A DNA stretch of 64,000 nucleotides from NCBI GenBank assembly GCA_947624565.1, contig CANQKX010000001.1:44587-108586 (forward strand). The letters run 5' to 3'. The notes below the pieces were generated by a model. It worked only from the letters and a program-made list of their open reading frames with translations. It was not told where the DNA came from and did no database searches. Below, one piece after another: positions 20,846-48,060 of this stretch; position 1 is the first letter of the stretch; the number at the start of each line of letters is the position of its first letter. Source of the DNA: an uncultured Bacilli bacterium. Its GTDB lineage: Bacteria; Bacillota_I; Bacilli_A; RF39; UBA660. The translations under genes and the position numbers were made by a program.

Positions 20846-20899
20846 ACTACTCACCCTTTTATTCTTATATAATATTAGTTTACAATAAAAATCCATTTT

Positions 20900-23450: not shown

Positions 23451-23505
23451 TTATTGCACCCTCTTTTTGCAAATGTATTATACTACAATATTTAATTTTA
23501 GACAA

Positions 23506-24111: not shown

Positions 24112-24174
24112 TTTAACACCTTCATTACTTTAAATTATGATGTGTATTAATAATGTTTTTATACATTTTTATTG

Positions 24175-24672: not shown

Positions 24673-25673
24673 TATCTTATATCATTGTAATACATATTTA
24701 TCTTTTTTTGATATATTTTATTAATTTTTTCATTTTTCCTATAATCTATCAAATCGTAGTTTTCTTTTAATATATTTGAAAAATATTTTGATAATTTTGT
24801 TGCACCTGATAAATTAAGATGTAAACCTCCATCATATGTATCTAAATTATAATTTATCCCTATTTCATTTGATATACTGGCAAAATTATAATATTGTAAA
24901 TTATTTTTCCTTGAATATTCTTGAATTTGTGTTTCATATTCTTCATACCAATATGGATATAAACTAGGTGCTTTTATAAGTATTAATTCTATATTATTTT
25001 TTTTACATAAAGAAACAATCTTGTCAAGGTATGAATAATCTATATCTGAAAAACTATAATTTGAAAGAATTTTTTTTGAAGGTAGTGAAGTATAAGGTTT
25101 TACATTAGTATTTATTAAAAAACCATTATGTGTATTTTTTTTTCTTTTAAATAAATATTCAAAATCTTCTTTTGTTAATTTGTCATATCTAGAATGATAC
25201 CTTATTATTGGAAATAAATAGGAGATAAAAGTTTCATCTTTTAACATTGAATTATTTATAATTTCTATTTTTTCTTTTGACCATTTCATTTTATCTATTG
25301 TTAACCTATTATAAGCTTCACTTACAGGCTTATTATATCTCATAGAATTAACATTAAATACCACTACTTTTGGCTTTTCATATTTTAAAGTTTCTTTTAA
25401 TATAGAATAAGATTGCCATATCAATTGTTGAGGTGTACCTCTTACATAAGAAGAAATTCCTTCTTCTTCATACATAACAATAGGAGAAAAATTTGCATAT
25501 ACTTCACAATCTCCTATAAAAATTACATCATGAGGAACTTCTTCATCGTAGTATTCTGATATCATTGATCCCTCTATTAGATTTGTTGCATATTTTGGAG
25601 AAAAAAGAATATTTAAAAATATAAATATAAGTGTAAAAGAAAATATTATAAGAAAAGTTTTTATATACTTCAT
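24669..25673 (-). CDS. SGNH/DltD-like (AlgX/PatB-like) putative O-acyltransferase partner protein, membrane-anchored
   Basis: N-terminal TM anchor then an extracytoplasmic domain, encoded immediately downstream of the MBOAT protein. This is the conserved MBOAT+SGNH pairing (DltB/DltD, PatA/PatB). Sequence-level family assignment is tentative. Confidence 0.4.
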   Translation of the reverse strand: MKYIKTFLIIFSFTLIFIFLNILFSPKYATNLIEGSMISEYYDEEVPHDVIFIGDCEVYANFSPIVMYEEEGISSYVRGTPQQLIWQSYSILKETLKYEKPKVVVFNVNSMRYNKPVSEAYNRLTIDKMKWSKEKIEIINNSMLKDETFISYLFPIIRYHSRYDKLTKEDFEYLFKRKKNTHNGFLINTNVKPYTSLPSKKILSNYSFSDIDYSYLDKIVSLCKKNNIELILIKAPSLYPYWYEEYETQIQEYSRKNNLQYYNFASISNEIGINYNLDTYDGGLHLNLSGATKLSKYFSNILKENYDLIDYRKNEKINKIYQKKINMYYNDIRY

Positions 25674-25685
25674 ATATACTACCTC

Positions 25686-26963
25686 CTAAAATTTACTATA
25701 AATAAACTCGTTAACATTAAATCCTATACCATATCTTCCAAAAGTAATAACTAATAGAAATAAAATTAAAATTATAATTATCTTTTTATTCGTTGTCATC
25801 TTCTTAATTTCTTCTTTTATTCTTAATTTTTTTATATCAAATATCATAATAATAACTATAGATATAATTAATATTAAATAATCTGATATTTCCAAACCAA
25901 AAATAAATAAATTTTTAAATAAACTTATATAATTAAATTCATAAAATATTGTTGACAATTTTGTAAGTGCTTCAATAGAATTTGGATAAATGAAAAATAT
26001 CCATAACAAAGAAACTATTATATAATTAAATATAATATTTAAAATTCTATTTTTACTTTTTTTATTGTTTTCTATAATTAATATAATACCATTTAATAAA
26101 CCCCACAAAATATAATTTATTCCATGCCATATTCCAGATACAAAGAAAGTTATTAAAATATTTATATTATTTCGTATTTTACTTACTCTATTTCCCCCTA
26201 ATGGAATGTATACATAATCTTTTAGAAAATTTGATAATGTAATATTCCATCTTTTCCAAAATTCTTTCAAATTTTCTGATAAATAAGGACTATCAAAATT
26301 TTCTACTAATTTTATATCAAATAAATTTGATACTCCTAATACTATATCAATTCCTCCACTAAAATCACAATATATAAGTATAGAATATAACAAACACGAT
26401 AATAATACATACGATCCCGTAAAATTATTTTCTACAATATAATTTATTATCACTATGATTCTTTGAGCAATTATAACTTTTTTAAATAATCCAAAAAGTA
26501 TTCGCATAAACCCATAAATGAAATTTTCTAATTTTATCTTCTTTTTCTTTTTTAATTGATTACCCAATTGAGAATATCTTGATATTGGGCCTATAAATAA
26601 ATATGGTAAATATAGTGCATATAATAAGAAATTAAATAAATTTGTTTCGGCATCTATTTTTTCGTTATATACATCAATTAAGTATGAAATTATTTGAAAA
26701 GTATAGTATGATATTCCAATAGGAACAATTATTGATGTTTTTTCAAAAATTCCAAAGAAATTGTTGTATATATATAGTTTGAAAAATAAAAGTAATAATA
26801 TATTTAATATAATTACAATCAATATTAATTTTTTTCTTTTTGATTTTTTCAATGTTTTCGCACTAAAAAAGGATATTAATGTACTTAATAATATATAAAT
26901 TAAATTATATATACCAAAACTGGCATAAATTAGTATACTAAATATTAATATAAAAATATTCAT
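25686..26963 (-). CDS. MBOAT-family membrane-bound O-acyltransferase (DltB/AlgI/PatA-like)
   Basis: Polytopic protein with the MBOAT catalytic His motif FFVSGIWHGINYILWG. The start at 26963 (MNIFILIF) has the RBS AGGAG 6 nt upstream, which removes the track's overlap with the upstream gene. Confidence 0.75.
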   Translation of the reverse strand: MNIFILIFSILIYASFGIYNLIYILLSTLISFFSAKTLKKSKRKKLILIVIILNILLLLFFKLYIYNNFFGIFEKTSIIVPIGISYYTFQIISYLIDVYNEKIDAETNLFNFLLYALYLPYLFIGPISRYSQLGNQLKKKKKIKLENFIYGFMRILFGLFKKVIIAQRIIVIINYIVENNFTGSYVLLSCLLYSILIYCDFSGGIDIVLGVSNLFDIKLVENFDSPYLSENLKEFWKRWNITLSNFLKDYVYIPLGGNRVSKIRNNINILITFFVSGIWHGINYILWGLLNGIILIIENNKKSKNRILNIIFNYIIVSLLWIFFIYPNSIEALTKLSTIFYEFNYISLFKNLFIFGLEISDYLILIISIVIIMIFDIKKLRIKEEIKKMTTNKKIIIILILFLLVITFGRYGIGFNVNEFIYSKF

Positions 26964-26971
26964 AAAATCTC

Positions 26972-28579
26972 CTATTCTGCAAGTGGAAATATGGATTGAT
27001 CCCACACTCTACCTTTCATACTTGCACTACTTAATTTTTCAATATCTGTTGCAGGACCCATTATATGATTTCCTGGTGTTGAATCAAAATGCCTATATAC
27101 TTCATTTATTTTAACTAAATTCCAATAATGAGTTTTATCTGTTGTATAAATCAAATAATTTGGAATTTCTTGTTTATCAAGAGCTTGTTTTACTAACAAT
27201 GCATGTACATAACAATTTCCCTTTTTTTCAGTTAAACCATACCAAATTGGATCCGAGCCTCCCCAATTTGAATTATACTTTATCATATTTCTTATTGTAC
27301 TAACTATTCCTGTTACATCTTTGCCAACTAAATAATTATTATAAAATTCATTAAATTTTTCTGATGTATCAAACTGGTCATGTTCAACATATATTTTTCT
27401 TTTTTTGTATGTTTTATTTCCACTTTTATCTTCGGAATAATAAGTTGCATAATAAGTACCAAAAACAGCCGTATTTACACTACTACTATCTACAGAAAAA
27501 CTAACATAGCCATCTTTTGCATCGTAAGCGCTTACTCCTGAATTATAGTCAATATTTGTATTTTTATTTATAGTTATTGTAGTTAATCCATTAATACTAG
27601 GACCAACTTCATCTTTTATTATATTTAAGGTACATTTTTGTTCTGTTTTGTTTCCACTTTTATCTATAGCTTCTATTATAATTTCTTGTTGACCTATATT
27701 GTTATTTATATCAGTTTTTAAATTTGTTTCAACTCCTTCTTGTTTATCATATACGTACTCAATAAAGGAATCTTTATTTATGTGTTGACCATAATATATA
27801 GTTACATTACGTAATTTTAATTCTGGAGGTGTTGTATCTTTTATTATTATTTTTACATTATAATTTTCATTATTATATTTTATTGGTATATTATATTCTC
27901 CAGGTGGAGAAGAATTTATTTTATCTAATATTTCTTGATTTATTAAATCTCCATTTTTATTAGAATTTAATAAAATTTCTTCTTTTGTTAGTAAATCACC
28001 TAACTCCTTTTCAATTTTTTCATTTAATAATTTTATTTTTAAGTTGCAGGTCTTTCTAGTACTATTCCCATATATATCTTTTACTTCTATAATTATTTTA
28101 TAATTTCCAAACTTGGTGATTTTTGGTTTATTTATGATATTTACAAGAATTTTTGAACTATCACTTTTACTAACAATAAAATCTTCCGCATTAATTTTAT
28201 AATCTATATCTTTTTCCAAATTTCTAAATTTTACTTTTGGAGGTGTTGTATCTTTAATATATAAATTTACATTTCTAGTAATGTTATTATATTTTATTTT
28301 TATATTATAGTTTGATACTTTTGAAGTGTCTATTTTTTTTACATTAGTTACAAAATAACTATCTTTTGGAGATTTTCCATCTTTGAAGAAACTTTGTATT
28401 TTTATTTCTTTTGTTCCTATTTCTAGTATTACCTCTTTTTTTACATTATTATAAATACATTTATATGAAATAAAAGAAACAAGGAAAAAAGCTAATAAAA
28501 TTATTAACTCTATAAATAATGAACGAAATAATACATATTTAAAGCTTTTTTTCTTTTCCTTCAAATTTTTTTTAAACAT
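26972..28579 (-). CDS. signal-anchored surface protein: two Ig-like (DUF5011-type) repeats plus a C-terminal transglutaminase-like (Cys-His-Asp) domain
   Basis: N-terminal TM. Two ~95-aa repeats share YIKDTTPPKVKFRNL / IIKDTTPPELKLRNV. C-terminal GNCYVHALL...THYWNLV...HFDSTPG resembles the papain-like transglutaminase core. Confidence 0.45.
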   Translation of the reverse strand: MFKKNLKEKKKSFKYVLFRSLFIELIILLAFFLVSFISYKCIYNNVKKEVILEIGTKEIKIQSFFKDGKSPKDSYFVTNVKKIDTSKVSNYNIKIKYNNITRNVNLYIKDTTPPKVKFRNLEKDIDYKINAEDFIVSKSDSSKILVNIINKPKITKFGNYKIIIEVKDIYGNSTRKTCNLKIKLLNEKIEKELGDLLTKEEILLNSNKNGDLINQEILDKINSSPPGEYNIPIKYNNENYNVKIIIKDTTPPELKLRNVTIYYGQHINKDSFIEYVYDKQEGVETNLKTDINNNIGQQEIIIEAIDKSGNKTEQKCTLNIIKDEVGPSINGLTTITINKNTNIDYNSGVSAYDAKDGYVSFSVDSSSVNTAVFGTYYATYYSEDKSGNKTYKKRKIYVEHDQFDTSEKFNEFYNNYLVGKDVTGIVSTIRNMIKYNSNWGGSDPIWYGLTEKKGNCYVHALLVKQALDKQEIPNYLIYTTDKTHYWNLVKINEVYRHFDSTPGNHIMGPATDIEKLSSASMKGRVWDQSIFPLAE

Positions 28580-28665
28580 TTTACACCTACTATATAGTAG
28601 TATACATTTTTTTAAATTTTAATGTCAATTTTTTGTTTTATAACAATGTAAAAAAATGTATATTT

Positions 28666-29622
28666 TTATACATTTTTAATATTATTTACAAACTCATTTA
28701 TATCAATATAATCGTTTAATAAATTATATAAATTTTTTATTAAATTTAAATCTAAATTATACTTAATCATCAAATTATATGATGAATCTATATTATCAAA
28801 ACCTTCTATAACCATACCTATTTCTTTGGTTATTTCATCTTTTTTCTTACCTTTAGATAGTAATATTCCTGCCCTTTTATTTCTACTATCATTTCCTATT
28901 GATGTTGTTAATAAATCTCCTAATCCTGACAAATTATAAAATGTGCTTTCTTTTGCACCTAGTTTTATTCCTATTTCTTTTATCTCATTTAATCCTTTAG
29001 TTATTATAAAAGATAATGTATTTGTATCATATCCTAATCCTTCAAATATTCCACTTGCGATTGACACAACATTTTTTAATGCTCCACCTATTTGTATTCC
29101 TATTATATCTTCATTATTTTCAAGTTTAAAATTGTCTGTTTCAAATAATTCCTTTATCTTCTTATTACCTGAATATTCAATAACTGTTATCATATCATTT
29201 ATAATTTGATTAGCATGTGATGGACCTGATATTACGGATATTTCACATTTTGGTAATTCTTCTTTTACTACATCTGATAATATCTTATTTGTTTTTTCTT
29301 CTAATCCCTTTGATGAGATTATTATCTGTTGATTTGTTACATATTTTTTTATATCTATGCAGGTTTGTCTTACAACTTTAGATGGTGTTGCAATAACTAT
29401 ATATTCACTATCAATTAAAGTTTCTTCATAATTTGTATAACATTTTATATTTTTATCTAAAAATAAATCTTTTAAATACATACTTTTATGTTCATTGTTT
29501 ATTAAATCACATTCTTCTTTTTTATATGACCATATTTTGATATTATTATCTTTCTTTTTGCTTAATACATACGCAAGTGCGCATCCAAAACTCCCACTAC
29601 CTATTATAGCTATATTTTTCAT
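28666..29622 (-). CDS. gpsA: NAD(P)H-dependent glycerol-3-phosphate dehydrogenase
   Basis: MKNIAIIGSGSFGCALA Rossmann N-terminus. The track's longer start (29643) would overlap the mnmE stop. Confidence 0.85.
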   Translation of the reverse strand: MKNIAIIGSGSFGCALAYVLSKKKDNNIKIWSYKKEECDLINNEHKSMYLKDLFLDKNIKCYTNYEETLIDSEYIVIATPSKVVRQTCIDIKKYVTNQQIIISSKGLEEKTNKILSDVVKEELPKCEISVISGPSHANQIINDMITVIEYSGNKKIKELFETDNFKLENNEDIIGIQIGGALKNVVSIASGIFEGLGYDTNTLSFIITKGLNEIKEIGIKLGAKESTFYNLSGLGDLLTTSIGNDSRNKRAGILLSKGKKKDEITKEIGMVIEGFDNIDSSYNLMIKYNLDLNLIKNLYNLLNDYIDINEFVNNIKNV

Positions 29623-29627
29623 ATTTC

Positions 29628-30974
29628 CTACTTTCCTAAACAAAAGTTACTAAATAATGTATCTATTAATTTTTCATCATAACTTTCACCTATTATTTCA
29701 TTTAATATTTCACAGATTTGTTTAATATCTATTTCAAGTATATCTATTGGAATATCTTCTTTTAAAGATTTTGATAAATTTTTTGCAATTTTGATTGCTT
29801 GTTTTACAAGCGATATCTGTCTTGAATTTGATAAATACGTAAAATCTTTATTATTTAATTCATCAAGTTTAAATATATCACTTATTTCTTCTTTTAATTC
29901 ATCAATTTCTTCTAAAGCTGATATTTTTATTATTTTTTCATCTTTAAAGATATTTAAATCTATTTTAGCATCTAAATCAATTTTATTTATTACTATTATT
30001 CTTTTTTTATCTTTTGTTATTTCTAATAAATTTAAATCCTCTTTTGTAATTTCTTCATTATTATTTAAAACTAATATTATTAAGTCTGCATTTTCTATTA
30101 AATTAATACTTTTTTCTACACCTATTTTTTCAACGATATCATCTGTTTTTCTAATTCCCGCCGTATCTATTATATTTAATAATACTCCATTTATTCTAAT
30201 TTGTCCCTCAACAATATCTCTCGTTGTTCCTGCTACATTTGTTACTATTGCTTTTTCTTCATTTAATAGTTTATTAAGTATTGAACTTTTACCTACATTT
30301 GGTCTTCCTAAAATTAGAGTATTTATTCCTTCTTTTATTATTTTTCCATTTTCTGATTCATTAAGTAATTTAGATAATTCTTCATTTATATATTTTGAAA
30401 TATCTTCTATTTCTTTTTTTGTAACTATCTCTATATCTTCATATTCTGGATAATCTATATTAACTTCTATATTAGCATTAAGGTTAATTAATTTATTTAC
30501 TATATCTTTAATTAATTTTGATATTTTTCCATCTATACCATTAATTGCAAGTTTTCTAGCATTTTCTGTCTTAGAATTTATCATATCCATTACTGATTCG
30601 GCTTCAATTAAGTCAATTCTTCCATTTAAAAATGCTCTTTTTGTAAATTCACCAGGTTCAGATAGTCTTGCTCCTTTACTCAACAAAATTTCAAGTATCT
30701 TATTTGTTGTTGAAATAGATCCATGACAATTTATTTCAACCATATCTTCTCTTGTAAATGTTTTAGGTGATTTCATAATTGTTACCATTACTTCATCTAT
30801 TATTTCATTATTTTCTATTATATGTCCATAAGTTATAGTATGAGAATCTTTTTTATTTAAATCTTTATCAAAAATACTATTTACTATATTTATTGATTCT
30901 TCACCACTTACTCTTATAATAGAAATTGCACCTATACCAACAGCCGTTGATATAGCACATATCGTATCATTCAT
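29628..30974 (-). CDS. mnmE: tRNA modification GTPase MnmE (TrmE/ThdF)
   Basis: G-domain GRPNVGKSS, DTAGIR and C-terminal CLGK. The start at 30974 (MNDTICAIST) is the typical MnmE N-terminus; the track's extension overlaps jag. Confidence 0.9.
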   Translation of the reverse strand: MNDTICAISTAVGIGAISIIRVSGEESINIVNSIFDKDLNKKDSHTITYGHIIENNEIIDEVMVTIMKSPKTFTREDMVEINCHGSISTTNKILEILLSKGARLSEPGEFTKRAFLNGRIDLIEAESVMDMINSKTENARKLAINGIDGKISKLIKDIVNKLINLNANIEVNIDYPEYEDIEIVTKKEIEDISKYINEELSKLLNESENGKIIKEGINTLILGRPNVGKSSILNKLLNEEKAIVTNVAGTTRDIVEGQIRINGVLLNIIDTAGIRKTDDIVEKIGVEKSINLIENADLIILVLNNNEEITKEDLNLLEITKDKKRIIVINKIDLDAKIDLNIFKDEKIIKISALEEIDELKEEISDIFKLDELNNKDFTYLSNSRQISLVKQAIKIAKNLSKSLKEDIPIDILEIDIKQICEILNEIIGESYDEKLIDTLFSNFCLGK

Positions 30975-31010
30975 AATATCATCTCTTTCTTTATTTATAA
31001 AAAGAACCAT

Positions 31011-31619
31011 CTATTTTGATGGTTTTATAACTACACATCTGTTTGGTTCTTCGCCTTCACTTTCTGTTTTTACTCCTTTGAAATCTTTTAATACTTCATG
31101 AATTAATCTTCTTTCATAAGAATTCATAGAATCCATTTTGATTTCTATTTGAGTTTGAACAACTTCTTTAGCTAATTTTTTTGCTAAAAATTCTATGCTT
31201 CTTTGATGTTTTTCTTTATAATCTTCAACATCTAATACTATATTAGCATGTATTCCTGTTTTCACATATATTGATTGTCTTAATATTACTTGTAAAGACT
31301 CTAAAGTTTTACCATTTTTTCCAATTAAAATTGAATTATTATTAGAATGTAATTTTATTAATATATGATTTTCTTTTCTTTTTGTTTCTATATTCAATTC
31401 AAGTCCAATTGCTTGTACTATTTGTTTTAAAAATTTTTTACTATATTCCAAAACTTCTGTTTTTAATACAACATTTAAAATTAATTTTTTCTTTTTTAAT
31501 AATCCTGTTGTTTCTTCTTTTACTGTATACAATAATTCATCTTCTTTTACTTCTAACTCATTTAATGCCTTTAATACTAATTCTTCTTCTGTTTTTCCTT
31601 CATATACATATATTTTCAT
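31011..31619 (-). CDS. jag: Jag/KhpB RNA-binding protein (KH + R3H domains)
   Basis: C-terminal R3H (SMNSYERRLIHEVLKDFKGVKTESEGEEPNRCVVI). Follows yidC. Confidence 0.85.
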   Translation of the reverse strand: MKIYVYEGKTEEELVLKALNELEVKEDELLYTVKEETTGLLKKKKLILNVVLKTEVLEYSKKFLKQIVQAIGLELNIETKRKENHILIKLHSNNNSILIGKNGKTLESLQVILRQSIYVKTGIHANIVLDVEDYKEKHQRSIEFLAKKLAKEVVQTQIEIKMDSMNSYERRLIHEVLKDFKGVKTESEGEEPNRCVVIKPSK

Positions 31620-31620
31620 A

Positions 31621-32565
31621 TTACTTTACCTCTTTCTTTGCTGTTTTTTTAACTATTAAATTTTGAATTATTGTAAACAATGTTGATGCTATCCAATATA
31701 GTGATAATGCTACTGAAAAGTTTAGTGACATAATTGCAATCATTATAAGTAAGAAATTAGTCATTGTATTTGGATTTATATCATCTGTTTGTGGTGTTGG
31801 CGCAGTTGTGTTTAATTTTTGTGATATAAATGTTGTTCCTATTATTAATATAACTATTATTGCATACTCAATATGACCTGAAGTAATTGCTTTTAAAGGA
31901 GTTGTTCCTAATATAAGTCCAAATAAATTTTCTTCAAATATAACAGGAACTCTATTTATTGCTTCTAAAAATCCAAATAATAATGGAATTTGTATAAATG
32001 CAAATAAACAACTTGAGAAAGGATTAATATTATATTTTTTGTATAATGTCATCATTTCCATAGATTTTTGATTTAATGATTGTTGATCTGTTTTATTTTC
32101 ATATTTTTTATTTATTCTATCCATTTCTGGTTGCATTTTTTTCATGTTTTCAGATTGCATAGCTGTCTTCTTTGTAAAAGGTGCCAAAATAAGTCTAATT
32201 ATTATAGATAATATTATCAATGCTATACCATAACTTTTAACTAAACTACCAATTTTAATCGTTAACCATGCTAATGGTTTAACTACTAATGTTTCCCATA
32301 AATTATTATAATTTCCATCACTTGGTGTAAAATTTGAACATTCTGGCAATTTTTCTATATTTATTTGTTTTTTGTACTCATTATATTTTTTTATAAGTCC
32401 TTTATTAGTTGGTTTACATAATATATTTTGATTTAATGTTATTTTTACTTTATCATCCTCGTATGTAACAACCTTTTTTGTTTTTGGGTCTTTTAGTGTT
32501 ACTGTACATCCTGTAAGTAGTATTATTAATAAAAAAATAAATATTCTTTTTATATTTTTTCTCAT
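31621..32565 (-). CDS. yidC: membrane protein insertase YidC/SpoIIIJ (lipoprotein form)
   Basis: Lipobox LLTGC, YidC TM core and a C-terminal basic tail. Confidence 0.85.
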   Translation of the reverse strand: MRKNIKRIFIFLLIILLTGCTVTLKDPKTKKVVTYEDDKVKITLNQNILCKPTNKGLIKKYNEYKKQINIEKLPECSNFTPSDGNYNNLWETLVVKPLAWLTIKIGSLVKSYGIALIILSIIIRLILAPFTKKTAMQSENMKKMQPEMDRINKKYENKTDQQSLNQKSMEMMTLYKKYNINPFSSCLFAFIQIPLLFGFLEAINRVPVIFEENLFGLILGTTPLKAITSGHIEYAIIVILIIGTTFISQKLNTTAPTPQTDDINPNTMTNFLLIMIAIMSLNFSVALSLYWIASTLFTIIQNLIVKKTAKKEVK

Positions 32566-32575
32566 AAAATTTCTC

Positions 32576-32905
32576 CTAATCTAACATCTTTGTAAATAAT
32601 TTTATTAAATTTTCTTTTTTTTCTTGATAATTTAACTCATTTATTTCTTTCTTTATAATTATAACATAATCATATGAAGAATTAAATATTAAATTGCTTT
32701 TATCTATAATATCTTTTATTTGTCTTTTTACCTTATTTCTCTCAACAGCATTACCTATCTTTGTTGAAATGCATATTGCAAATCTATATTTATTAAGGTT
32801 ATTTTTTCCACTATATATTGAAAAATATTTATTTTTTATGCAATTTTTATTATTTATTATTTTATTAATTTCATAATTTTTTTTAATAATATTTATTTTT
32901 TTCAT
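32576..32905 (-). CDS. rnpA: ribonuclease P protein component
   Basis: 109-aa basic protein between rpmH and yidC with an RnpA-like RNR motif region (KVKRQIKDII). Confidence 0.8.
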   Translation of the reverse strand: MKKINIIKKNYEINKIINNKNCIKNKYFSIYSGKNNLNKYRFAICISTKIGNAVERNKVKRQIKDIIDKSNLIFNSSYDYVIIIKKEINELNYQEKKENLIKLFTKMLD

Positions 32906-32951
32906 TAATTCACCTACTTACAAAAAAAACCACTAGTATAAAGTGGAATTA

Positions 32952-33074
32952 TTATTTAGATAAAGTCTTACGTCCTTTTTTTCTTCTATTATTTAATACT
33001 TTACCTTTTACTCTAGAAAAAAATCCATGTTTTTTTGCTTTCTTTCTATTATTAGGTTGAAATGTTCTTTTCAT
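32952..33074 (-). CDS. rpmH: 50S ribosomal protein L34 (40 aa; below the ORF-track size cut-off)
   Basis: Minus-strand [40 protein letters not shown], canonical L34 (MKRTFQP...GRK.L). RBS GGAGGTG. Confidence 0.85.
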
Positions 33075-33138
33075 TTTAACACCTCCAGCTCATAAAACAT
33101 TACAATTATATATTTTTTTTAAAAAAAAGTCAATAATT

Positions 33139-33666
33139 TTAATTTTGTGATAACTTTTTTTCTTTATTTTTTCTTTCTGAAATTATTTCTTCTAATACTT
33201 CATCACATATTCCTTCAATTTTTTTGATTGATTCTTTATTTCTTTGGGTGTGACATAAATCAACAAAATAATTATATGATTCTTCGTCTGCTTCTTTATA
33301 TTGGCTTATATCCACATAAGATCTTACATATCCCTTTCTATTATAAGTTGAGGCTATATTTCCTTGAACATCATAAAATGAATAACCAATTTTAACTACA
33401 GAATGAAAATCATTTGAAGCTGATGTATAAATTTTTGAATCATTTTCAAAAATCTTATTCAACATATGTGAAAAATAGTAACAACTTCCTTCCATAAATA
33501 TTGACATTGTAAGTTGATATTTTGTATCTTCGTCTAATTTTTGAAAATCAGAATCAGAATCAAGATATTTTTGAGAAAATTTACTTATAATTGAATCAAT
33601 TACATCTAAAATAGGTTCACTTTGCTTATTTATTAACTCTGATACTTTTTTAAAATAATCTTCCAT
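33139..33666 (-). CDS. hypothetical cytoplasmic protein (no recognisable family) heading the rpmH-rnpA transcription unit
   Basis: 175 aa, acidic/aromatic-rich, no TM. Occupies the position where rpmH normally faces dnaA. Confidence 0.4.
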   Translation of the reverse strand: MEDYFKKVSELINKQSEPILDVIDSIISKFSQKYLDSDSDFQKLDEDTKYQLTMSIFMEGSCYYFSHMLNKIFENDSKIYTSASNDFHSVVKIGYSFYDVQGNIASTYNRKGYVRSYVDISQYKEADEESYNYFVDLCHTQRNKESIKKIEGICDEVLEEIISERKNKEKKLSQN

Positions 33667-33773
33667 AAAAAACCTCTTTCCTTAGAATTTATACAATATT
33701 ATACATTTTTTTAGATAAATTTCAATATTTTTTATAAAAACAATATGATATAATGTAAATAGGAAGTGATTTT

Positions 33774-35135
33774 ATGATAAATATTAAAACTGATTCAAGA
33801 AAAGTTAAGGAAGGAGATACTTTTATAGCAATTAAAAATGTTAATACTGATGGACATGATTTTATTAATCAAGCAATTGAAAATGGAGCTAAAAAAATAA
33901 TTTGTGAACATGGAGAATATCCTGTTGAAACTGTAATTGTTAATAATACAAAAGAATTTTTAAATAAATATTTATATGATAATTATTATGAAAAAATTAA
34001 AGATATGAAATTAATTGGTGTAACAGGAACCAACGGAAAAACAACTATTTGTTATTTAGTTTATCAAATATTGACATTACTTAATAAAAAATGTGCATAT
34101 ATAGGAACAATTGGTTTTTTCTGTGGAAATATAAAAAGAGAATTGAATAACACAACTCCTGATACAGATTTATTATATGAAATGTTTTTAGAAGCAAAAG
34201 AAAATAATTGTGAATATATTGTTATGGAAGTAAGTAGTCATGCCCTTGATAAAAATAGAATTTATGGATTAGAATTTGATGAAGTAGCCTTTACAAATCT
34301 TACACAAGACCATTTAGATTATCACAAAACTATTGAAAATTATATTGAAGCAAAAAAGAAATTATTTTTTAGAACTAGAAATAATAAAATTGCTATTATA
34401 AATGCTGATGATAAATATTATAAAAATTTTCTAAATAAAGATAATAAAAATATTTTGATAAGTGAAAATAATGCAGATTTATCTATTAAAAAAATTAATT
34501 TATCTCATCTTAATACTAATATCATATTTAACTTTGAAAATATTGAATATGAAACTACAATAAATATGATAGGAAAATATAATGTTTATAATTTTTTAAC
34601 AGCCTTGTTACTTGTAAATAAATTAGGATTTGATATAAAAGATATCTTAAAAATTACAAATAAATTAAATGCTCCAAATGGTAGAATGGAGTTAATAAAA
34701 TATAAAACAAATAGTATTTTTATTGATTATGCACATACCCCAGATGCTGTTTTAAATGTTTTAGAAAATGCTAAAGAATATAAAAAAGGAAAAATTATAA
34801 CAATTATTGGTTGTGGAGGGGATAGAGATAGATCAAAAAGACCAATAATGGGAAAAATTGCTGAAGAAAATTCTGATTTTGTTATTTTTACTAATGATAA
34901 TCCAAGAACAGAAGATGAAAATCAAATTATGAATGATATTATTAATGGGTTAAGTAAAAAAAATCATGAAATAATTTTAGATAGAGAAGAGGCTATAAAA
35001 AAAGGAATATCCTTATTAAATAATAATGATATATTAATGGTTTTAGGAAAAGGGCATGAAGATTATCAAATAATTGGAAATACAAAATATCATTTTAGTG
35101 ATAAAGAAATAGTTTTGAAATATATTAAAATATAA
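33774..35135 (+). CDS. murE: UDP-N-acetylmuramoyl-L-alanyl-D-glutamate--2,6-diaminopimelate (or L-lysine) ligase MurE
   Basis: Mur ligase P-loop GVTGTNGKTT and a DNPR-type C-terminus (FTNDNPRTED). Slightly short N-terminus. Confidence 0.85.
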   Translation: MINIKTDSRKVKEGDTFIAIKNVNTDGHDFINQAIENGAKKIICEHGEYPVETVIVNNTKEFLNKYLYDNYYEKIKDMKLIGVTGTNGKTTICYLVYQILTLLNKKCAYIGTIGFFCGNIKRELNNTTPDTDLLYEMFLEAKENNCEYIVMEVSSHALDKNRIYGLEFDEVAFTNLTQDHLDYHKTIENYIEAKKKLFFRTRNNKIAIINADDKYYKNFLNKDNKNILISENNADLSIKKINLSHLNTNIIFNFENIEYETTINMIGKYNVYNFLTALLLVNKLGFDIKDILKITNKLNAPNGRMELIKYKTNSIFIDYAHTPDAVLNVLENAKEYKKGKIITIIGCGGDRDRSKRPIMGKIAEENSDFVIFTNDNPRTEDENQIMNDIINGLSKKNHEIILDREEAIKKGISLLNNNDILMVLGKGHEDYQIIGNTKYHFSDKEIVLKYIKI

Positions 35136-35146
35136 GGAGTCTATGT

Positions 35147-36526
35147 ATGAAAAAGATTTTAATAAAAGATATTTTAAATATATGCAATGCAGAATTATTT
35201 TTTGGAAAGAAAAATTTAATATGTAATTATTTTTCTAATGATACTAGAAAAATAAAAAAAGGGGATATATACATTGGTATTAAAGGAAATAACTTTGATG
35301 GAAATAAATTTTATGATGATGCTTTTCAAAAAGGCGCAAAAGCATGCATTTTAGAAAAAAAATATTTTGATAAAAATAATTTTGATAAAATAAAATATAA
35401 AAATAAAACTATAATTCTTGTTGATAATTCTATTGAAGCCTTACAAAAAATTGCAGAGTATAAACGTTCTTTATATAATATACCAGTAATAGCAGTAACG
35501 GGTAGTGTTGGTAAAACAAGTACAAAAGATATAATTGCAAGCACATTAAGTGAAAAATATAAAGTTTTGAAAACTGAAGGTAATTATAATAATCATATTG
35601 GTTTACCATTAACTATATTAAAGTTAAATAAACATAATGCAATGGTTTTAGAAATGGGAATGAATAATTTAGGAGAAATTCATTTATTAAGTAAAATTGC
35701 TAAACCTACAATTGCAGTTATTACAAATATAGGAACAGCTCATATTGGTAATTTAGGATCTAGAGAAAATATATTAAAAGCAAAACTTGAAATTACAGAT
35801 TTTTTAGATGAAAATGGAGTTCTTATTATAAATAATGATAATGATTTATTACACGAAAATTTAAATTTCTTAAAAAATAAGTTAAAATTAATTACAATCG
35901 GTATTGAAAATGATAGTGATTTTATAGCAAAAAATATTAATTTTGATATATTTAAAAGTAAATTTGAAATAGAAAATAACGTAATAAAAATAAATGTAGG
36001 AGGATATCCTTATATTTATAACTCTTTATTTGCATATTCTATTGGTAAATATTTAAATATTAAAGAAAATAAAATAATAAAAGGAATAGAAAATTTTAAA
36101 TTATCAAATAATAGAATGGAAAAAATAATTAATAATAAGGGAATAACTATTATAAATGATACATATAATGCTAGTTATGATTCAACTATATATGCCATTG
36201 ATTTAGTTGATAAATCTAATTATAAAAGAAAAATTTTATTACTTGCAGACATCTTAGAACTTGGTAAATTTTCTAAAGAAATCCACAGTAAAATAGGTAA
36301 TTATATTATTAATAAAAATATAGATTATGTAATTTTGGTGGGTAATGAAGTAAAATATATTAAAGATATTTTAGAAAAAAATAATTTTAATAATATATAT
36401 TTATTTAATAAAGAAGAAGAAACTTATGACTTTTTAGATAACTTTTTACAAAAAGAAGATATTATATTAATAAAAGGTTCTCATGCAATGAATTTAATTA
36501 ATATTGTTAACTATTTAAAAAAGTGA
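35147..36526 (+). CDS. murF: UDP-N-acetylmuramoyl-tripeptide--D-alanyl-D-alanine ligase MurF
   Basis: P-loop AVTGSVGKTSTK and a Mur ligase middle and C-terminal domain. A terminator hairpin AAGTGAA-aataaa-TTCACTT plus T-run overlaps its stop (36520-36548). Confidence 0.85.
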   Translation: MKKILIKDILNICNAELFFGKKNLICNYFSNDTRKIKKGDIYIGIKGNNFDGNKFYDDAFQKGAKACILEKKYFDKNNFDKIKYKNKTIILVDNSIEALQKIAEYKRSLYNIPVIAVTGSVGKTSTKDIIASTLSEKYKVLKTEGNYNNHIGLPLTILKLNKHNAMVLEMGMNNLGEIHLLSKIAKPTIAVITNIGTAHIGNLGSRENILKAKLEITDFLDENGVLIINNDNDLLHENLNFLKNKLKLITIGIENDSDFIAKNINFDIFKSKFEIENNVIKINVGGYPYIYNSLFAYSIGKYLNIKENKIIKGIENFKLSNNRMEKIINNKGITIINDTYNASYDSTIYAIDLVDKSNYKRKILLLADILELGKFSKEIHSKIGNYIINKNIDYVILVGNEVKYIKDILEKNNFNNIYLFNKEEETYDFLDNFLQKEDIILIKGSHAMNLINIVNYLKK

Positions 36527-36540
36527 AAATAAATTCACTT

Positions 36541-36740
36541 TTTTTGTGGAAAAAATATGACTTTTTTATTATAATATAAGGAAAAATTTAATTATAAACA
36601 TTATCAACATATTTGTGGATAAATATAAAATATTTATAAACATGTTGTTTATATAAAATTTGTGGAAATTGTGGAAAACTATAGAATTTTATTATTTTAT
36701 AACAATTTTTATAAACTTTTATTGTTGATAATTTTTTAAC
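36541..36740. promoter_or_regulatory. oriC-associated DnaA-box cluster and dnaA promoter region
   Basis: DnaA-box 9-mers: TGTGGATAA perfect at 36614-36622; one-mismatch boxes TTATCAACA (36601), TGTGGAAAA (36545, 36670), TGTGGAAAT (36661) and TGTTGATAA (36723). Confidence 0.65.
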
Positions 36741-36814: not shown

Positions 36815-38185
36815 ATGAACATTGATAATATTTGGAATCAATTTTTAAATATAATAAAAACAAGATTATCTTCTCTTTCATATAATACTTGGTTTAGCTC
36901 GTCTAAACTTGTTGAATTAAATGAAGAACATGCTGTTATAATTGTTCCAACGATTGCTCATAAAAAACATTTATCTGAATCATATATAGATATTATAAAT
37001 GAAATATTTAATGATATAACAGGAACTAATTTTAATATTGAATTTGTATTAGAAAATGAATATGAAAAAAATAAAAATCAAACTAGTAAAAATATTGAAA
37101 ATGATATAGAAGAATATGGTGTTCCTTATAATAGTAGTGAGAAAGCTAATTTAAATCCAGATTATACTTTTGAAAATTTTATAGTAGGTGAAAGTAATAG
37201 ATTTGCACAAGCGACTGCTCTTGCTGTTGCTGAAAATCCTGGAAAAATGTATAATCCTTTATTTATATATGGAAATAGCGGATTAGGTAAAACCCATTTA
37301 ATGCAAGCAATTGGAAATTATATAATAAAAAATAGTAATAAAAGAGTATTATATGTTACTAGTGATCAATTCATCAATGATTTTCTTGGTTTAAATAAAA
37401 AAGATAAAGATGGAACTAATTTTGATTATGTTGAAATATTTAAAGATAAATATAGAAATATAGATGTATTAATTATTGATGATATTCAATTTTTAGGGAA
37501 TGCTCCAAAAACACAAAATGAATTTTTTCACACATTTAATACATTATATGATGATAAAAAACAAATAATTATTTCTTCTGATTCTTCTCCTGATGATTTA
37601 AAACATTTAGAGGATAGGTTAAGAACAAGATTTAATTGGGGATTAAAAGTAAATATTTTTCCACCTGATAATAATCTTAGAAAAGAAATATTAAGAAAAA
37701 AAATGGCAAATATGGATTTTTCTAGACATATTACTGAGGATGCGATTGATTATATTGCTAACATGTGTGCTTCTGATGTAAGAAGTTTAGAAGGTGCTTT
37801 AACAAGAGTTTGTGCTTATTCAACTATCTTTTTTGAAGAAGAAATTACACTTGATCTTGCTGTTGAAGCTTTAAAAGGAACAATTTCTCAAACTTCTAAC
37901 TTTAAAAACGATATTCAAAAGATACAAAGAATTGTTGCTGAATATTATAATGTATCTGTTGAAGATTTAAAATCAAAAAAAAGAGTAGCAAGTATTGCTT
38001 TTCCTAGACAAATTGCTATTTACTTATCAAGATTATTAACTGATGAATCATTTCCAAGAATTGGTATGGAATTTGGAGGAAGAGATCATTCAACTGTAAT
38101 TCATTCATGTGATAAAATTGAAAAAGAAATTAAAAATAATAAGCAATTAGAAAAAATAATAGAAGAAATTAAATTAAAATTATAA
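36815..38185 (+). CDS. dnaA: chromosomal replication initiator protein DnaA
   Basis: AAA+ Walker A GNSGLGKTHL, DnaA signature and a C-terminal DNA-binding domain. Confidence 0.95.
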   Translation: MNIDNIWNQFLNIIKTRLSSLSYNTWFSSSKLVELNEEHAVIIVPTIAHKKHLSESYIDIINEIFNDITGTNFNIEFVLENEYEKNKNQTSKNIENDIEEYGVPYNSSEKANLNPDYTFENFIVGESNRFAQATALAVAENPGKMYNPLFIYGNSGLGKTHLMQAIGNYIIKNSNKRVLYVTSDQFINDFLGLNKKDKDGTNFDYVEIFKDKYRNIDVLIIDDIQFLGNAPKTQNEFFHTFNTLYDDKKQIIISSDSSPDDLKHLEDRLRTRFNWGLKVNIFPPDNNLRKEILRKKMANMDFSRHITEDAIDYIANMCASDVRSLEGALTRVCAYSTIFFEEEITLDLAVEALKGTISQTSNFKNDIQKIQRIVAEYYNVSVEDLKSKKRVASIAFPRQIAIYLSRLLTDESFPRIGMEFGGRDHSTVIHSCDKIEKEIKNNKQLEKIIEEIKLKL

Positions 38186-43230: not shown

Positions 43231-45675
43231 ATGGATCATAGTAGAGATAGATTAGAAGAAAACAATATAGTAGATGAAATAGAATCATCTTTTATAGAAT
43301 ATTCAATGAGTGTAATTGTATCACGTGCTCTTCCAGATTTAAGAGATGGTCTTAAACCTGTTCATAGAAGAATTTTATGGTCAATGTATGAATCAGGATA
43401 TACTCCAGATAAGCCTCATAAAAAATCCGCTCGTATTGTTGGTGATGTTATGGGTAAATATCATCCACATGGAGATTCAAGTATATATGAAGCAATGGTT
43501 CGTATGGCTCAAGATTTTAGTTATAGAAATATGCTAGTAGATGGTCATGGAAATTTTGGTAATATAGAAGGTTATGGTGCAGCAGCAATGCGTTATACTG
43601 AGTCTAGATTATCAAAAATTTCACTTGAAATGCTTAGAGATATAAATAAAAACACTGTTAATTTTAAACCAAACTTTGATGAATCAGAAAAAGAACCAGA
43701 GATTTTACCATCTAGATTTCCAAATATATTAGTAAATGGAACAATGGGTATTGCTGTTGGTATGGCAACAAATATTCCACCACATAATTTAGGTGAAGTA
43801 ATAGACGGATGTATTGCATATATAGATAATCCAGAAATAGACACAGCAGGATTAATGGAATATATAAAAGGACCAGATTTTCCAACAGGAGGAATAATAT
43901 TAGGTAATAGTGGAATAAAAAAAGCATATGAAACAGGAAGAGGAACTATTACAATTAGAAGTAGAGCAAGAATAGAAGAAGAAAAAGGAAAACACTTAAT
44001 TATAATCGATGAGGTTCCATATGGTGTTAATACAATGGAATTAAAAAATAAGGTTGCAGAACTTGTTCATAATAAAACTATAGATGGTATTGCTGATTAT
44101 CATACAGACTTAAAAAATGGTGTAAAAATTACAATAACATTAAAGAAAGATGCAAATGCACAAGTTGTTTTAAATAATTTATATAAACATACATCATTTC
44201 AAACAAATTTTGGAATAATTTTCTTAATGTTAGATCAAGGAGTACCAAAAACTCTAGGACTTAAAGATATTATTTCAAAATATGTTGAATATCAAAAAGA
44301 AATAATTATAAGAAGAACAAAATTTGATTTAGATAAAGCTGAAAAAAGAGTTCATATTTTAGAAGGATTAAAGATTGCTTTAGATCATATAGATGAAGTT
44401 ATTAAATTAATAAGAGGTTCAAAAACAGATGAAGAAGCAAAATCTGGTTTAATGAATAAATTTGGTTTAAGTGAAGCACAATCAGATGCAATTCTTGAAA
44501 TGAAGTTAAGAAGATTAACAGGATTAGAAAGAGATAAAATTGAAAATGAATTAAATGAATTATTAGATAAAATAAATGAATTTAAATTAATTTTAGCATC
44601 TGATGAAAAAATATATGGAATTATCAAAACTGAATTGTTAGAAATAAAAGATAAATATAGTGATGATAGAAGAACAAGTATAGATATGACAGCAATAGAT
44701 TACATTGAAGATGAATCTTTAATTCCAGTAGAAGATATAATTGTAACTTTGACAAATAAGGGATATATTAAAAGATTAACAACAGATACATATAAAGTTC
44801 AAAATAAAGGTGGAGTTGGAGTAAAGGGAATGTCTACTAATGAAGAAGACTTCGTTGAACAAATGTTAACTCTAAAAACACATGATCATGTTCTATTCTT
44901 TACTAATAAAGGAAAAGTATATAGAATAAAAGGATATGAAATACCTGAATTTTCAAGACAAGCTAAGGGATTACCAATAATAAATCTATTACCAATTGAA
45001 AAAGATGAATTTGTAAAAGCAATATTACCAATAACTGTTGATGATGATATTGCTACAAAATTAGTAACTTTTGTAACAAAAAATGGTCTTGTAAAACGTA
45101 CTGATATATCAGAATTTGAAAATATAAGAAAAACCGGTAAAATAGCAATAAATTTAAAAGAAGATGATGAGTTATTATTTGTTAGCTTAACAACAGGAAA
45201 TGATGAAATTGTAATAGGTGCATCAAATGGTAGATTAGTAAGATTTAATGAAAATGAAATAAGAATTATGGGAAGAACAGCAAGTGGAGTAAAAGGAATT
45301 GATATACCAAATGGAGTTAATTGTGTAAGTGCAGAAAAAGTAAATAAAGAAAGTGATATATTAATAATTACTGAAAAAGGTTATGGAAAACGTACGAAAA
45401 TTGATGAATATAGATTAACTCATAGGGGAAGTAAAGGGGTTAAAGCATTAAATATAACAGAAAAAAATGGAAATTTAGTTTCAGTAAAAAATGTTAATGA
45501 AAATGAAGACTTAATGATTATAACAAACAGTGGTATTGTTATTAAAATTCCAGTTAATCAAGTATCAAAGATGAGTAGAGTAACTCAAGGTATAAGATTA
45601 ATAAATTTAAAAGAAAATCAAAAAGTTACCACAATTGCTACTACAAAAGAAGAAGAAGAGACTATAAATGAATGA
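43231..45675 (+). CDS. gyrA: DNA gyrase subunit A
   Basis: Catalytic Tyr region (AAMRYTE), a QRDR-like segment ([17 protein letters not shown]) and a GyrA-box beta-pinwheel C-terminus. Confidence 0.95.
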
Positions 45676-45767
45676 ATAGTCTTTTTTTTACAAAAAGCGA
45701 ACAAAATATTTCCCGGGAAATATTTTACGAACAAAAAGCGAACAAAAAAATAAAAAATAATATTTAT

Positions 45768-45796: not shown

Positions 45797-45802
45797 TTTA
45801 AT

Positions 45803-45880
45803 GCACAACGGGAATATTGGAACCAGGTCAGGATAGAAATATAGCAGCCTTAACAATCAATTTTCGTGTGTGCTTTTTTT
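45803..45880 (+). ncRNA. ffs: signal recognition particle RNA (small 4.5S-type ffs/scr)
   Basis: CCAGGUCAGGAUAGAAAUAUAGCAGCC aligns position-for-position with the universally conserved SRP domain IV CCAGGUCAGGUCCGGAAGGAAGCAGCC (GNRA-type GAAA tetraloop, conserved flanks). The 5' GCACA pairs with the 3' UGUGC, followed by a U7 terminator. tadA follows it, as in B. subtilis (tadA-scr-dnaX). Confidence 0.65.
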
Positions 45881-45892
45881 GTGGAGGAATGT

Positions 45893-46300
45893 ATGAGTAT
45901 AATTAATATAGAAAAAGAATTAAATAAATTAATATTAAAAGCATTAAAGTATAATGAGGTTCCAATTGCAGCAATAATAATAAAAAATGGTAAAATTATA
46001 AGTAAAGCTTATAATAAAGTTAATAAAACTAATAATTTTATGGATCATGCAGAAATAATATCTATAAAAAAAGCAATAAAAAAATTAAAAAATTGGAGAT
46101 TAAAAGAATGCATAATGTATGTTAGTTTAGAACCTTGTGCAATGTGTAAAGAAATTATAAAAAAATCTAGAATAGAAGAAGTATATTATTTTGTTAATCA
46201 GAATGCTGAAAAAACTGAAAAAAATCCTAATTATAAAAAAATAAATTCTACAACTGATTTTTCAACAACATTAAAAAAATTTTTTGTTAATAGACGATAA
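45893..46300 (+). CDS. tadA: tRNA-specific adenosine deaminase TadA (CDA-fold)
   Basis: Zn motifs HAE(IISIKKA) and PCAMC. The start at 45893 (MSIINIEKELNK) has the RBS GGAGG; the track's start at 45866 would overlap the SRP RNA and its terminator. Confidence 0.8.
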   Translation: MSIINIEKELNKLILKALKYNEVPIAAIIIKNGKIISKAYNKVNKTNNFMDHAEIISIKKAIKKLKNWRLKECIMYVSLEPCAMCKEIIKKSRIEEVYYFVNQNAEKTEKNPNYKKINSTTDFSTTLKKFFVNRR

Positions 46301-46306: not shown

Positions 46307-46400
46307 AATGTTCCACGTGGAACATTCAAATAATAAGTAACTAATGTTTCACGTGGAACATTGATAAAAATAAAAAATATAATGTTTCACGTGAAACATT
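46307..46400. repeat. three tandem 20-bp palindromes AATGTT(C/T)CACGTG(G/A)AACATT in the tadA-dnaX intergenic region
   Basis: Copies at 46307-46326 (perfect), 46343-46362 (one mismatch) and 46381-46400 (perfect, followed by GTTTTT). Centre-to-centre spacing is 36 and 38 bp. Confidence 0.6.
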
Positions 46401-46461
46401 GTTTTTAATACTGAAAATTAATAAAATATGATATAATTATATAGGCAATAAAGGAGGTTTT

Positions 46462-48060
46462 ATGGAATATCAAGCATTATATAGAAAATATAGACCAAAA
46501 ACATTTGATGATGTATATGGTCAAGAAATAATTGTTCAAACATTAAAAAATATTATTAAAAACAACAAATTAACACATGCATATTTATTTATAGGACCTC
46601 GTGGTACAGGAAAAACAAGTATTGCAAAAATATTTGCTAAAACAATAAATTGTTTAAATTCTAAAAATGGAATATCTTGTGAAAAATGTGAAATTTGTAT
46701 TAATAATAATCAAAATGAAAATATAGATATAATTGAAATGGATGCTGCATCAAATAATGGTGTTGATGAAATACGTGAAATAAAAAATCATGTTACATTG
46801 TTGCCAACTATTTCAAAATATAAGATATATATTATAGATGAAGTACATATGTTAACCACAGGGGCATTTAATGCATTATTAAAAACATTGGAAGAACCCC
46901 CAAAACATGTTATTTTTATTTTAGCAACAACGGAACCTCATAAAATTCCATTAACCATTGTATCTAGATGCCAATCTTTTGAATTTAAACCAATTCCTAA
47001 AAAAATAATAAAAGAAAGATTAAAATATATTTGTGAACAAGAAAAAATAAAAATTGATGAGAAAGCATTAGAATTGATAGCTTTAGATTCAAATGGTGGA
47101 ATGAGAGATGCAATAGGACTATTAGATCAGTTAAATTCATATTCAAATTCAAATATAAAATATGAAGATGTTTTATTACTCAATGGTAGAATATCAACAG
47201 ATGAAATAAATAATTTAATTTTAAATATAAAAAATAATAAATTAAAAAATGTGTTTGATATAATTGAAAATTTTGAAACTGATGGCAAAAATTTTATTTA
47301 TATAAGTGAAGATATAATAAAAATATTAAGAGATGAATTAATAATATATCAAACTGGAAAACAATCAACATTAATAAATAAAATAAGTAGTGAAAAAGCC
47401 TTTGATATAATCTTACTTATAAATAAATCTATTAATGATATGAAAAATTCAAAAGATAAAAAAATATTTTTTGATATTATGATTATGAAAATATATGAAA
47501 TATTAAATAATCAAACAAATGTTTATATAAATAATAATAAAAATGAACAGAAAGAAAAAATACAAAAAGAAATAACATCTGAAAAATTTGATACAAAATT
47601 ATATGAAAAATTAATGGAAATAAGACTAAATAATATTTTATCAAATGCAAATAAACAATTATTAATTGAATATAAGTCAAAATTTAAAAAATTAGATAGT
47701 GAAATAACTAACTTAGATCAATTAAAAATTGCTAATATTTTGATGGAGTGTGAAGTTCATGCTGGAAGTGATGAAGGAATAGTAATTACTACAGATATTG
47801 AAAATTTATTGATTGATATTTATAAAGAATTAGATATAATAGAACAAGTGATATCAGAAATTATTGGAAGAAAAGTAAAAATATGTGCGTTATTAAAAGA
47901 TATTTGGAATAATAAAAGACAAATATATGTAGATAAAATCAAAAATAAAGAAAAAATTGAATATATAAGTGAAGAAGATATAGTAAAAAAGATAAATGAG
48001 TTATATAATATAAAAGAAACAAATGAATTTGAAGATTTATTAGAGATAAAAGGAGAATAA
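46462..48060 (+). CDS. dnaX: DNA polymerase III subunit gamma/tau
   Basis: AAA+ GPRGTGKTS, Zn module CEKCEIC and a clamp-loader SRC motif. Confidence 0.9.
   Translation: MEYQALYRKYRPKTFDDVYGQEIIVQTLKNIIKNNKLTHAYLFIGPRGTGKTSIAKIFAKTINCLNSKNGISCEKCEICINNNQNENIDIIEMDAASNNGVDEIREIKNHVTLLPTISKYKIYIIDEVHMLTTGAFNALLKTLEEPPKHVIFILATTEPHKIPLTIVSRCQSFEFKPIPKKIIKERLKYICEQEKIKIDEKALELIALDSNGGMRDAIGLLDQLNSYSNSNIKYEDVLLLNGRISTDEINNLILNIKNNKLKNVFDIIENFETDGKNFIYISEDIIKILRDELIIYQTGKQSTLINKISSEKAFDIILLINKSINDMKNSKDKKIFFDIMIMKIYEILNNQTNVYINNNKNEQKEKIQKEITSEKFDTKLYEKLMEIRLNNILSNANKQLLIEYKSKFKKLDSEITNLDQLKIANILMECEVHAGSDEGIVITTDIENLLIDIYKELDIIEQVISEIIGRKVKICALLKDIWNNKRQIYVDKIKNKEKIEYISEEDIVKKINELYNIKETNEFEDLLEIKGE

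Follow-up and report, generated by a model that had tools for sequence, protein, structure and literature searches.

The spacer between tadA and dnaX of an uncultured Bacilli bacterium carries three closely spaced palindromes. They are most probably parS sites of the chromosome and would make up a small centromere-like array, which lies 9.6 kb to the right of oriC. We put the probability of this reading at roughly three in four. An earlier note on the same DNA, a stretch of 64,000 nucleotides (64 kb; hereafter the window), had proposed a triplicated parS array near the origin as one of several possibilities, and this proposal is supported by the exact motif, the short distance to oriC and the perfect arrays found in relatives. 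The three palindromes with CACGTG cores have the sequences and coordinates that the note had given them. Candidate copy 1 (46307–46326, unstranded) reads AATGTTCCACGTGGAACATT with the core TGTTCCACGTGGAACA at 46309–46324, and candidate copy 2 (46343–46362, unstranded) reads AATGTTTCACGTGGAACATT with the core TGTTTCACGTGGAACA at 46345–46360; both are exact matches to TGTTNCACGTGNAACA. Candidate copy 3 (46381–46400, unstranded) reads AATGTTTCACGTGAAACATT, and its core (46383–46398) has no mismatch to the perfect consensus TGTTTCACGTGAAACA.

Such a cluster is not expected by chance. The window holds three matches to TGTTNCACGTGNAACA (cores at 46309, 46345 and 46383) where 0.17 would be expected, and none of 100 shuffles gave three matches. 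Further copies of TGTTNCACGTGNAACA are absent from the 64 kb even with up to two mismatches, and tolerating three mismatches to TGTTTCACGTGAAACA adds no site in the window. CACGTG itself occurs just six times in the window, which has 22% GC, and three of these occurrences are the palindromes. Copies 1, 2 and 3 differ from TGTTTCACGTGAAACA at 2, 1 and 0 positions, respectively, and from the published parS sequence TGTTNCACGTGAAACA at 1, 1 and 0 positions; the description of copy 3 as an exact parS and of the other two as one base off is therefore true of TGTTNCACGTGAAACA.

The window spans the replication origin. GC skew flips sign at approximately 33–34 kb, and a cluster of five DnaA boxes (36545–36731, unstranded), which marks oriC, lies upstream of dnaA (36815–38185). 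dnaN, recF, gyrB and gyrA (43231–45675), assigned by ORF positions and synteny, come after dnaA. They are followed on the forward strand by a gene for the small bacterial type of SRP RNA (45797–45882; Rfam RF00169, 54.9 bits), by tadA, encoding tRNA adenosine deaminase (45894–46300; Pfam deaminase domains), and by dnaX, encoding clamp-loader tau/gamma (46462–48060; Pfam DNA_pol3_delta2 and related domains). The array begins 7 bp past the tadA stop and ends 62 bp before the dnaX start codon. The SRP RNA had been placed upstream of tadA in the earlier note, and the Rfam match agrees with this. The true start of tadA is probably the ATG at 45894, which stands behind a GGAGG, rather than the listed GTG at 45866; the latter, a mechanically assigned ORF start, overlaps the SRP RNA gene. 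Since GGAGG and this ATG follow almost directly on the end of the SRP RNA at 45882, the arrangement suggests a joint transcript of SRP RNA and tadA that is subsequently processed.

Several other features of the region were recorded in passing. The origin gene cluster is rearranged (17903–36526 in the window, together with L004 and L006): noc and gidB are directly followed by a class A PBP gene on the opposite strand, without soj-spo0J, and two Mur-ligase genes (33774–36526) stand between the rpmH-side genes and dnaA. The organism, whose DNA is known from metagenome assemblies such as ENA ERZ27249541, carries the sporulation genes for SpoIIR, SpoIID, SpoIIID and SpoVT. An apparently ordinary L31-Firmicutes ribosomal-protein leader precedes rpmE (8397–8428, reverse strand; RF03156, 35.1 bits).

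Closely spaced parS sites are an ordinary architecture, as indicated by how common they are across phyla. When reference genomes were scanned for pairs of parS sites 10–40 bp apart, at least 120 loci from many phyla came up. Among the matches listed, arrays of two to four parS at 26–56 bp spacing are common, and triplets include several Collinsella genomes with exactly 39/39 bp and a Eubacteriales MAG with 37/39 bp; many of the tandem-parS loci listed adjoin rsmG and parA/parB. In the window, start-to-start distances are 36 bp from copy 1 to copy 2 and 38 bp from copy 2 to copy 3, close to the earlier estimate of about 37 bp, and all three copies fall within 94 bp. Helical phasing was considered as a rule for this spacing and rejected: the short spacings within the clade are 36, 38, 42, 44, 45, 47 and 53 bp, and the tandem spacings listed across phyla are spread broadly over 26–56 bp with no clear helical phasing.

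The same interval carries parS in relatives of the organism. A search of metagenomes for DnaX relatives retrieved 80 loci, the best of them 45% identical, and 12 of the 80 have any parS; 11 of these 12 are low-GC (about 25–28% GC). Eight low-GC DnaX loci have the order gyrB-gyrA-spacer-tadA-dnaX-ebfC-recR, with two to seven perfect parS in that interval. Four further loci with a matching interval came from the genome scan among the matches listed; three are labelled "uncultured Bacilli bacterium" (L026, L098 and L111), and the fourth, labelled Muribaculaceae (L046), may be misbinned. In total, 12 syntenic loci from low-GC gut genomes each carry 2–10 perfect parS in the gyrA-SRP RNA-tadA-dnaX interval, and their GyrA proteins are 65–77% identical to that of the window (complete genes only). 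The closest relative among the matches listed, L098 (GyrB 81% and GyrA 77% identical), has ten perfect parS; two of these stand between tadA and dnaX, the position that the sites occupy in the window too. In each of the 11 relatives whose sequence covers the gyrA-tadA spacer, the SRP RNA is located there, so the order gyrA-scr-tadA-dnaX is a trait of the lineage. By contrast with this interval, approximately 100 kb of other DNA from the lineage (L001, L004, L006, L209 and L210) contains no parS. Judged from these sequences, this low-GC Bacilli lineage preferentially has its parS, and often Noc-binding sites (NBS) as well, in the gyrA-SRP RNA-tadA-dnaX interval. Whether the copies would prove origin-proximal or scattered had been raised as a point to check, and the former holds for the window and for these 100 kb.

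In relatives, parS or NBS sites also occur in frame within the variable linker of DnaX (around amino acids 350–405). They were located at 7874–7979 of L098, 5083 and 5179 of L129, 2209 and 2278 of L046, 5041 of L131, 5140 of L143, 5066 of L144, 5045 of L152 and 3792 of L026. There parS is encoded as (N/D)V(S/P)RET and NBS as NYFPGN or NISREI. Some genomes have parS in this region and others have NBS; the dnaX of the window has neither.

What is conserved among these sites is the DNA motif itself. In the 63 lineage sites, which come from 13 loci, only two core positions vary: position 5 (T/C) and position 12 (A/G). The conserved palindrome reaches 18 bp, with an A at −1 (58 of 63 sites) and a T at +1 (all 63); because relatives conserve just these 18 bp (A-TGTTYCACGTGRAACA-T), the A/T at the outer ends of the 20-bp palindrome is particular to the window. 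Beyond the 18 bp, flanks, spacing and copy number all vary among the lineage loci. An invariant core with free flanks, which occurs in frame inside dnaX and nowhere in about 100 kb of DNA from elsewhere in the lineage, supports a protein-binding parS array; this pattern of conservation and confinement also argues against an RNA element, a dnaX-specific operator and a dispersed repeat.

The first of these alternatives holds that the palindromes are RNA hairpins of the tadA 3′ end or dnaX leader, acting as terminator, attenuator or stabiliser, with an incidental likeness to parS. As the earlier note had expected from an 8-bp stem with an ACGU loop, every copy folds into a stable hairpin with an 8–9 bp stem and an ACGU loop (−7.4 to −9.3 kcal/mol; −8.8 kcal/mol for copy 1), and the 146-nt region folds at −40.6 kcal/mol (z = −6.9), but such a strong z-score is expected of any palindrome. 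Positions 5 and 12 face each other in the hairpin and yet vary independently without covariation (observed 20/30/9 versus expected 20.8/28.5/9.8), and the commonest class, C5/A12, is a C·A mismatch in the RNA stem. This independence points to selection on DNA half-sites (GTTTCAC/GTTCCAC) and not on RNA pairing. The loop and all stem bases are, moreover, invariant rather than compensating, no Rfam family matches at the array, and in relatives the motif lies upstream of the SRP RNA, between genes or in frame inside dnaX. We regard a primary role in RNA as very improbable.

A secondary role for one copy is another matter. Directly after copy 3 we read GTTTTTAAT (46401–46409, forward strand), where the earlier note had pointed out GUUUUU, and the extended hairpin of copy 3 (−9.3 kcal/mol) is followed by UUGUUUUU. 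In all four loci with a site in the tadA-dnaX spacer (window, L129, L098 and L046), the dnaX-proximal parS is followed by five or six T. A simple consensus scan called no terminator at the array; copy 3 was missed because its stem has too few G-C pairs. The proposal that copy 3 acts as the tadA terminator is thus favoured by the T-run in four of four loci and weakened by the weak hairpin, the blank scan and a motif that RNA pairing does not conserve. Copy 3 and its T-run may plausibly serve as a weak tadA terminator in addition to a role in DNA binding, the symmetry of the site and the T-run having this as a side effect.

The earlier note had also named an operator array for another dimeric regulator; in that case an unrelated transcription factor would control dnaX from these sites. 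Three phased palindromes do look like operator arrays, and the end of this one lies 5 bp upstream of a promoter-like match before dnaX (46405–46432, forward strand; TTAATA-16-TATGAT, 9/12 in a consensus scan). This match is weak, however, and the number of such matches is not above background. The motif is exactly the parS consensus, including the known degenerate position; its copy number ranges from 2 to 10 among loci; and most sites of relatives either precede dnaX by 500–1700 bp, on the far side of tadA and the SRP RNA, or fall within the dnaX coding region. An operator is accordingly disfavoured, and we consider it marginally less probable even than the RNA element.

Least probable of all, and hardly credible in our view, is a selfish or neutral repeat family of the REP or MITE kind that is palindromic by chance. 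Such a family would account for the tandem expansion in relatives, where arrays are duplicated in 119-bp units (L130) and 44-bp units (L098), and for the flanking sequence that copies 1 and 2 of the window share. Against it, only the 18-bp palindrome is conserved between loci, all copies lie in a single origin-proximal interval, and they come without a transposase or terminal structures. The 36-nt units of the window are 81% and 69% identical to copy 1, mostly due to the palindrome itself, and the inter-copy spacers are otherwise largely unrelated. The chromosomal parS array that we favour also differs from the iterated centromeres of plasmids. The F plasmid sopC consists of 12 repeats of 43 bp, each with an inverted repeat. 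Closely spaced tandem ParB-type palindromes are common to both, and L098 and L130 have true tandem units; the window array, in contrast, is not made of head-to-tail units that include the spacer, lies on a chromosome, and uses the universal chromosomal parS.

The only ParB-family product encoded in the window, according to Pfam and NCBIfam scans of its ORFs, is a Noc-like protein of 326 aa (19865–20845, reverse strand; Pfam ParB_N and HTH_ParB), whose gene adjoins rsmG/gidB; these scans found no Soj/ParA. Its top PDB matches are Noc structures (7NFU, 1.9e-64, versus 7e-52 for Spo0J, 1VZ0), and it scores 293 bits against NCBIfam TIGR04285 (nucleoid_noc), under the cut-off of 315, with the match covering profile positions 1–200 of 255. 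At the specificity positions 173/179/184/201 the protein has Q-K-N-R. Extant ParBs have the pattern R-x-x-G without any variation at R173 or G201, and R173 was retained by all parS-specific variants (PMC7383237); Q173 reads adenine 1 and R201 cytosine 6 of NBS, given a lysine at 179 or 184 (PMC7383237). Both specificity-switching residues and one permissive lysine are therefore present, with N rather than K at residue 184. The exact QKNR variant does not appear in the portion of the supplementary text available for this deep-mutational-scan paper (PMC7383237). Q-K-N-R is shared by all 120 orthologues listed (P0001–P0120), and the representatives clustered at 50% (P0121–P0269, 57–84% identical) belong only to the Noc-like family and all have Q-K-x-R. 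By the published residue rule, the protein is predicted to read an NBS at 45707–45722 instead of parS. Its nomination as the binder of the array in the earlier note is probably wrong, since it belongs to the NBS-reading class.

The Noc-like protein departs from typical Noc at both ends. Its start is the ATG at 20845: a Shine-Dalgarno sequence goes with this codon, and in a relative (L209) a stop codon interrupts the frame further upstream. A longer ORF of 343 aa, with a possible amphipathic extra N-terminus, was rejected, as it has no ribosome-binding site and meets that stop codon in L209. Just 16–17 residues precede PNRFQPR in all 120 orthologues listed, and an N-terminal amphipathic membrane-targeting segment is missing from the Noc-like protein. 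Amphipathic N-terminal membrane targeting is required for nucleoid occlusion (PMC8429893), and the label "nucleoid occlusion protein" may consequently be wrong for a family that has no such helix. The AlphaFold model (mean pLDDT 70) shows the N-terminal and DNA-binding domains of ParB type with confidence; they are joined by a disordered linker to a small C-terminal domain of 40 residues with a helix and a beta-hairpin. This conserved C-terminal domain ends in YDFDxxYQFVIKV, and the tails of the family extend over about 230–980 aa. The L209 protein is 85% identical to that of the window. The region before the gene (20846–20900, reverse strand) resembles positions 9935–9975 of L209 (ATTGTAAAAAATGGATTTTTATTGTAAAC versus ATTGTAAAATATGTATTTTTATTGTACAAT); this region, in which an ATTGTAxA element is repeated, could be a promoter or operator.

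A perfect site exists for such a protein. The predicted NBS at 45707–45722 (unstranded) reads TATTTCCCGGGAAATA with no mismatches, lies 32 bp past the stop codon of gyrA, 600 bp before the parS array begins, and contains the sole CCCGGG of the 64-kb window; matches with up to three mismatches are expected 0.39 times in the window by chance. Relatives L140, L143 and L131 also have an NBS just after gyrA. A total of 226 kb from the lineage contains 59 exact parS and 19 exact NBS but not one hybrid or mixed site, and the two classes differ in their flanking preferences. The absence of hybrids implies two separate readers.

In L130, the gyrA-SRP RNA spacer (2778–3326) is occupied by 4.6 copies of the 119-bp unit, 94% identical to one another. 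Each unit has one parS and one NBS, such that the two motifs alternate about every 60 bp. We know of no description of interleaved ParB/Noc site arrays like this one.

The strongest alternative to a separate ParB is that the Noc-like protein is the one ParB-family protein of the lineage and binds either both parS and NBS or parS alone. Its gene is the sole ParB-family gene found within about 80 kb of oriC, here and in relatives; the protein is without the membrane-targeting N-terminus of Noc and has N, not K, at position 184; and some engineered ParB/Noc intermediates are promiscuous (PMC7383237). However, Q173 and R201 specify NBS, parS-specific variants all kept R173, and so did every promiscuous variant named in that study (PMC7383237). 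Furthermore, two sharp motif classes with unlike flanks and no hybrids are not expected from a single recognition helix, and the protein has a perfect NBS of its own. A single reader thus seems improbable to us, even if less so than the RNA, operator or repeat readings.

Under the two-reader reading that we prefer, the cognate ParB would be encoded elsewhere. A canonical ParB (R-x-x-G) or Soj was not found within about 80 kb around oriC. No parA or parB is present in the contig flanks, about 8 kb beyond either window end, or in the noc neighbourhoods of relatives; a Pfam scan of unannotated neighbour genes of ParA/ParB size gave nothing, and a homologue search with the Noc-like protein returned, among the matches listed, orthologues only. 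The ancestral Firmicutes ORI cluster has parA and parB beside noc and gidB and has been broken up in some lineages (PMC8136486). Because the ancestral cluster keeps these genes together, their absence beside noc/gidB is atypical; because it has been broken up elsewhere, a ParB gene at another place in the genome is the most likely explanation. We infer the cognate binder solely from the conservation of its site.

The mechanism that we propose is transferred from the established ParB-parS pathway. A canonical ParB dimer of the Spo0J type (R173/G201), encoded outside the window, would nucleate on each of the three sites, bind CTP, close into a clamp and slide onto flanking DNA. Three loading sites within so short a distance would raise the rate of ParB loading, and the resulting partition complex would single out the origin region as the part of the chromosome to be segregated and to receive the SMC condensin. 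Meanwhile, the Noc-type paralogue (19865–20845) would read the NBS and leave parS to ParB. ParB binding at the array, the location of its gene, SMC loading and terminator activity are all steps that we infer.

This arrangement can be set beside well-studied systems. Origin-proximal clusters of 1 to about 23 parS are established (PMC7333895; PMC7022226); for example, there are about 20–23 in Streptomyces coelicolor, 22 in Myxococcus xanthus, 10 in Corynebacterium glutamicum, and parS1–4 in Pseudomonas aeruginosa (PMC7333895; PMC7022226). The window resembles these in having multiple parS near oriC, and the number likewise varies by species. In contrast to many loci of our scan, which adjoin rsmG/parAB, this lineage has its sites across oriC from there, in the gyrA-SRP RNA-tadA-dnaX interval. 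B. subtilis has 10 parS in total, 8 of them in the ori domain (PMC7022226). Its parS/Spo0J system has in common with the window the 16-bp palindrome TGTTNCACGTGAAACA, several origin-proximal sites, and a Noc paralogue with NBS alongside; unlike B. subtilis, the window packs three sites into 94 bp of the tadA-dnaX spacer, lacks soj-spo0J beside noc/gidB, and has a cognate ParB that is a predicted one. With the Noc-NBS system of Bacillus and Staphylococcus, the window shares the perfect NBS TATTTCCCGGGAAATA and a ParB paralogue beside gidB with Q173/K179/R201. The window protein differs in its missing amphipathic segment, in N at 184 and in its long tail, and the NBS of relatives are interleaved with parS.

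We offer one tentative idea that is rather unlikely as it stands: in this lineage, two CTP clamps of the ParB family may share the gyrA-dnaX interval as a composite landing pad, namely ParB at parS and an anchor-less Noc-derived protein with a new C-terminal tail at adjacent or interleaved NBS. The NBS that precedes the window array and the parS-NBS units of L130 would be examples. If this were true, the Noc paralogue would have been repurposed from nucleoid occlusion to origin organisation or segregation alongside ParB. In a more radical variant, no canonical ParB may exist, and the Noc-like family may now serve the centromere in its place.

An origin-proximal parS cluster in an uncultured gut Firmicute is ordinary in itself, and the immediate use of this one is for annotation, as it helps to place the centromere and the origin region in a lineage that has been poorly sampled. 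The arrays of the lineage stand in the gyrA-dnaX interval and not beside parAB, with fast turnover of copy number and spacing and with some sites in frame inside dnaX, and they are natural examples in which to study what makes parS sites cluster and what determines how many there are, a question that is still open (PMC7333895). Side-by-side parS and NBS without hybrids show in natural genomes the sharp division of specificity between ParB and Noc that is known from laboratory mapping, and annotating the members of this large anchor-less Noc-like family as nucleoid occlusion proteins may be unsafe.
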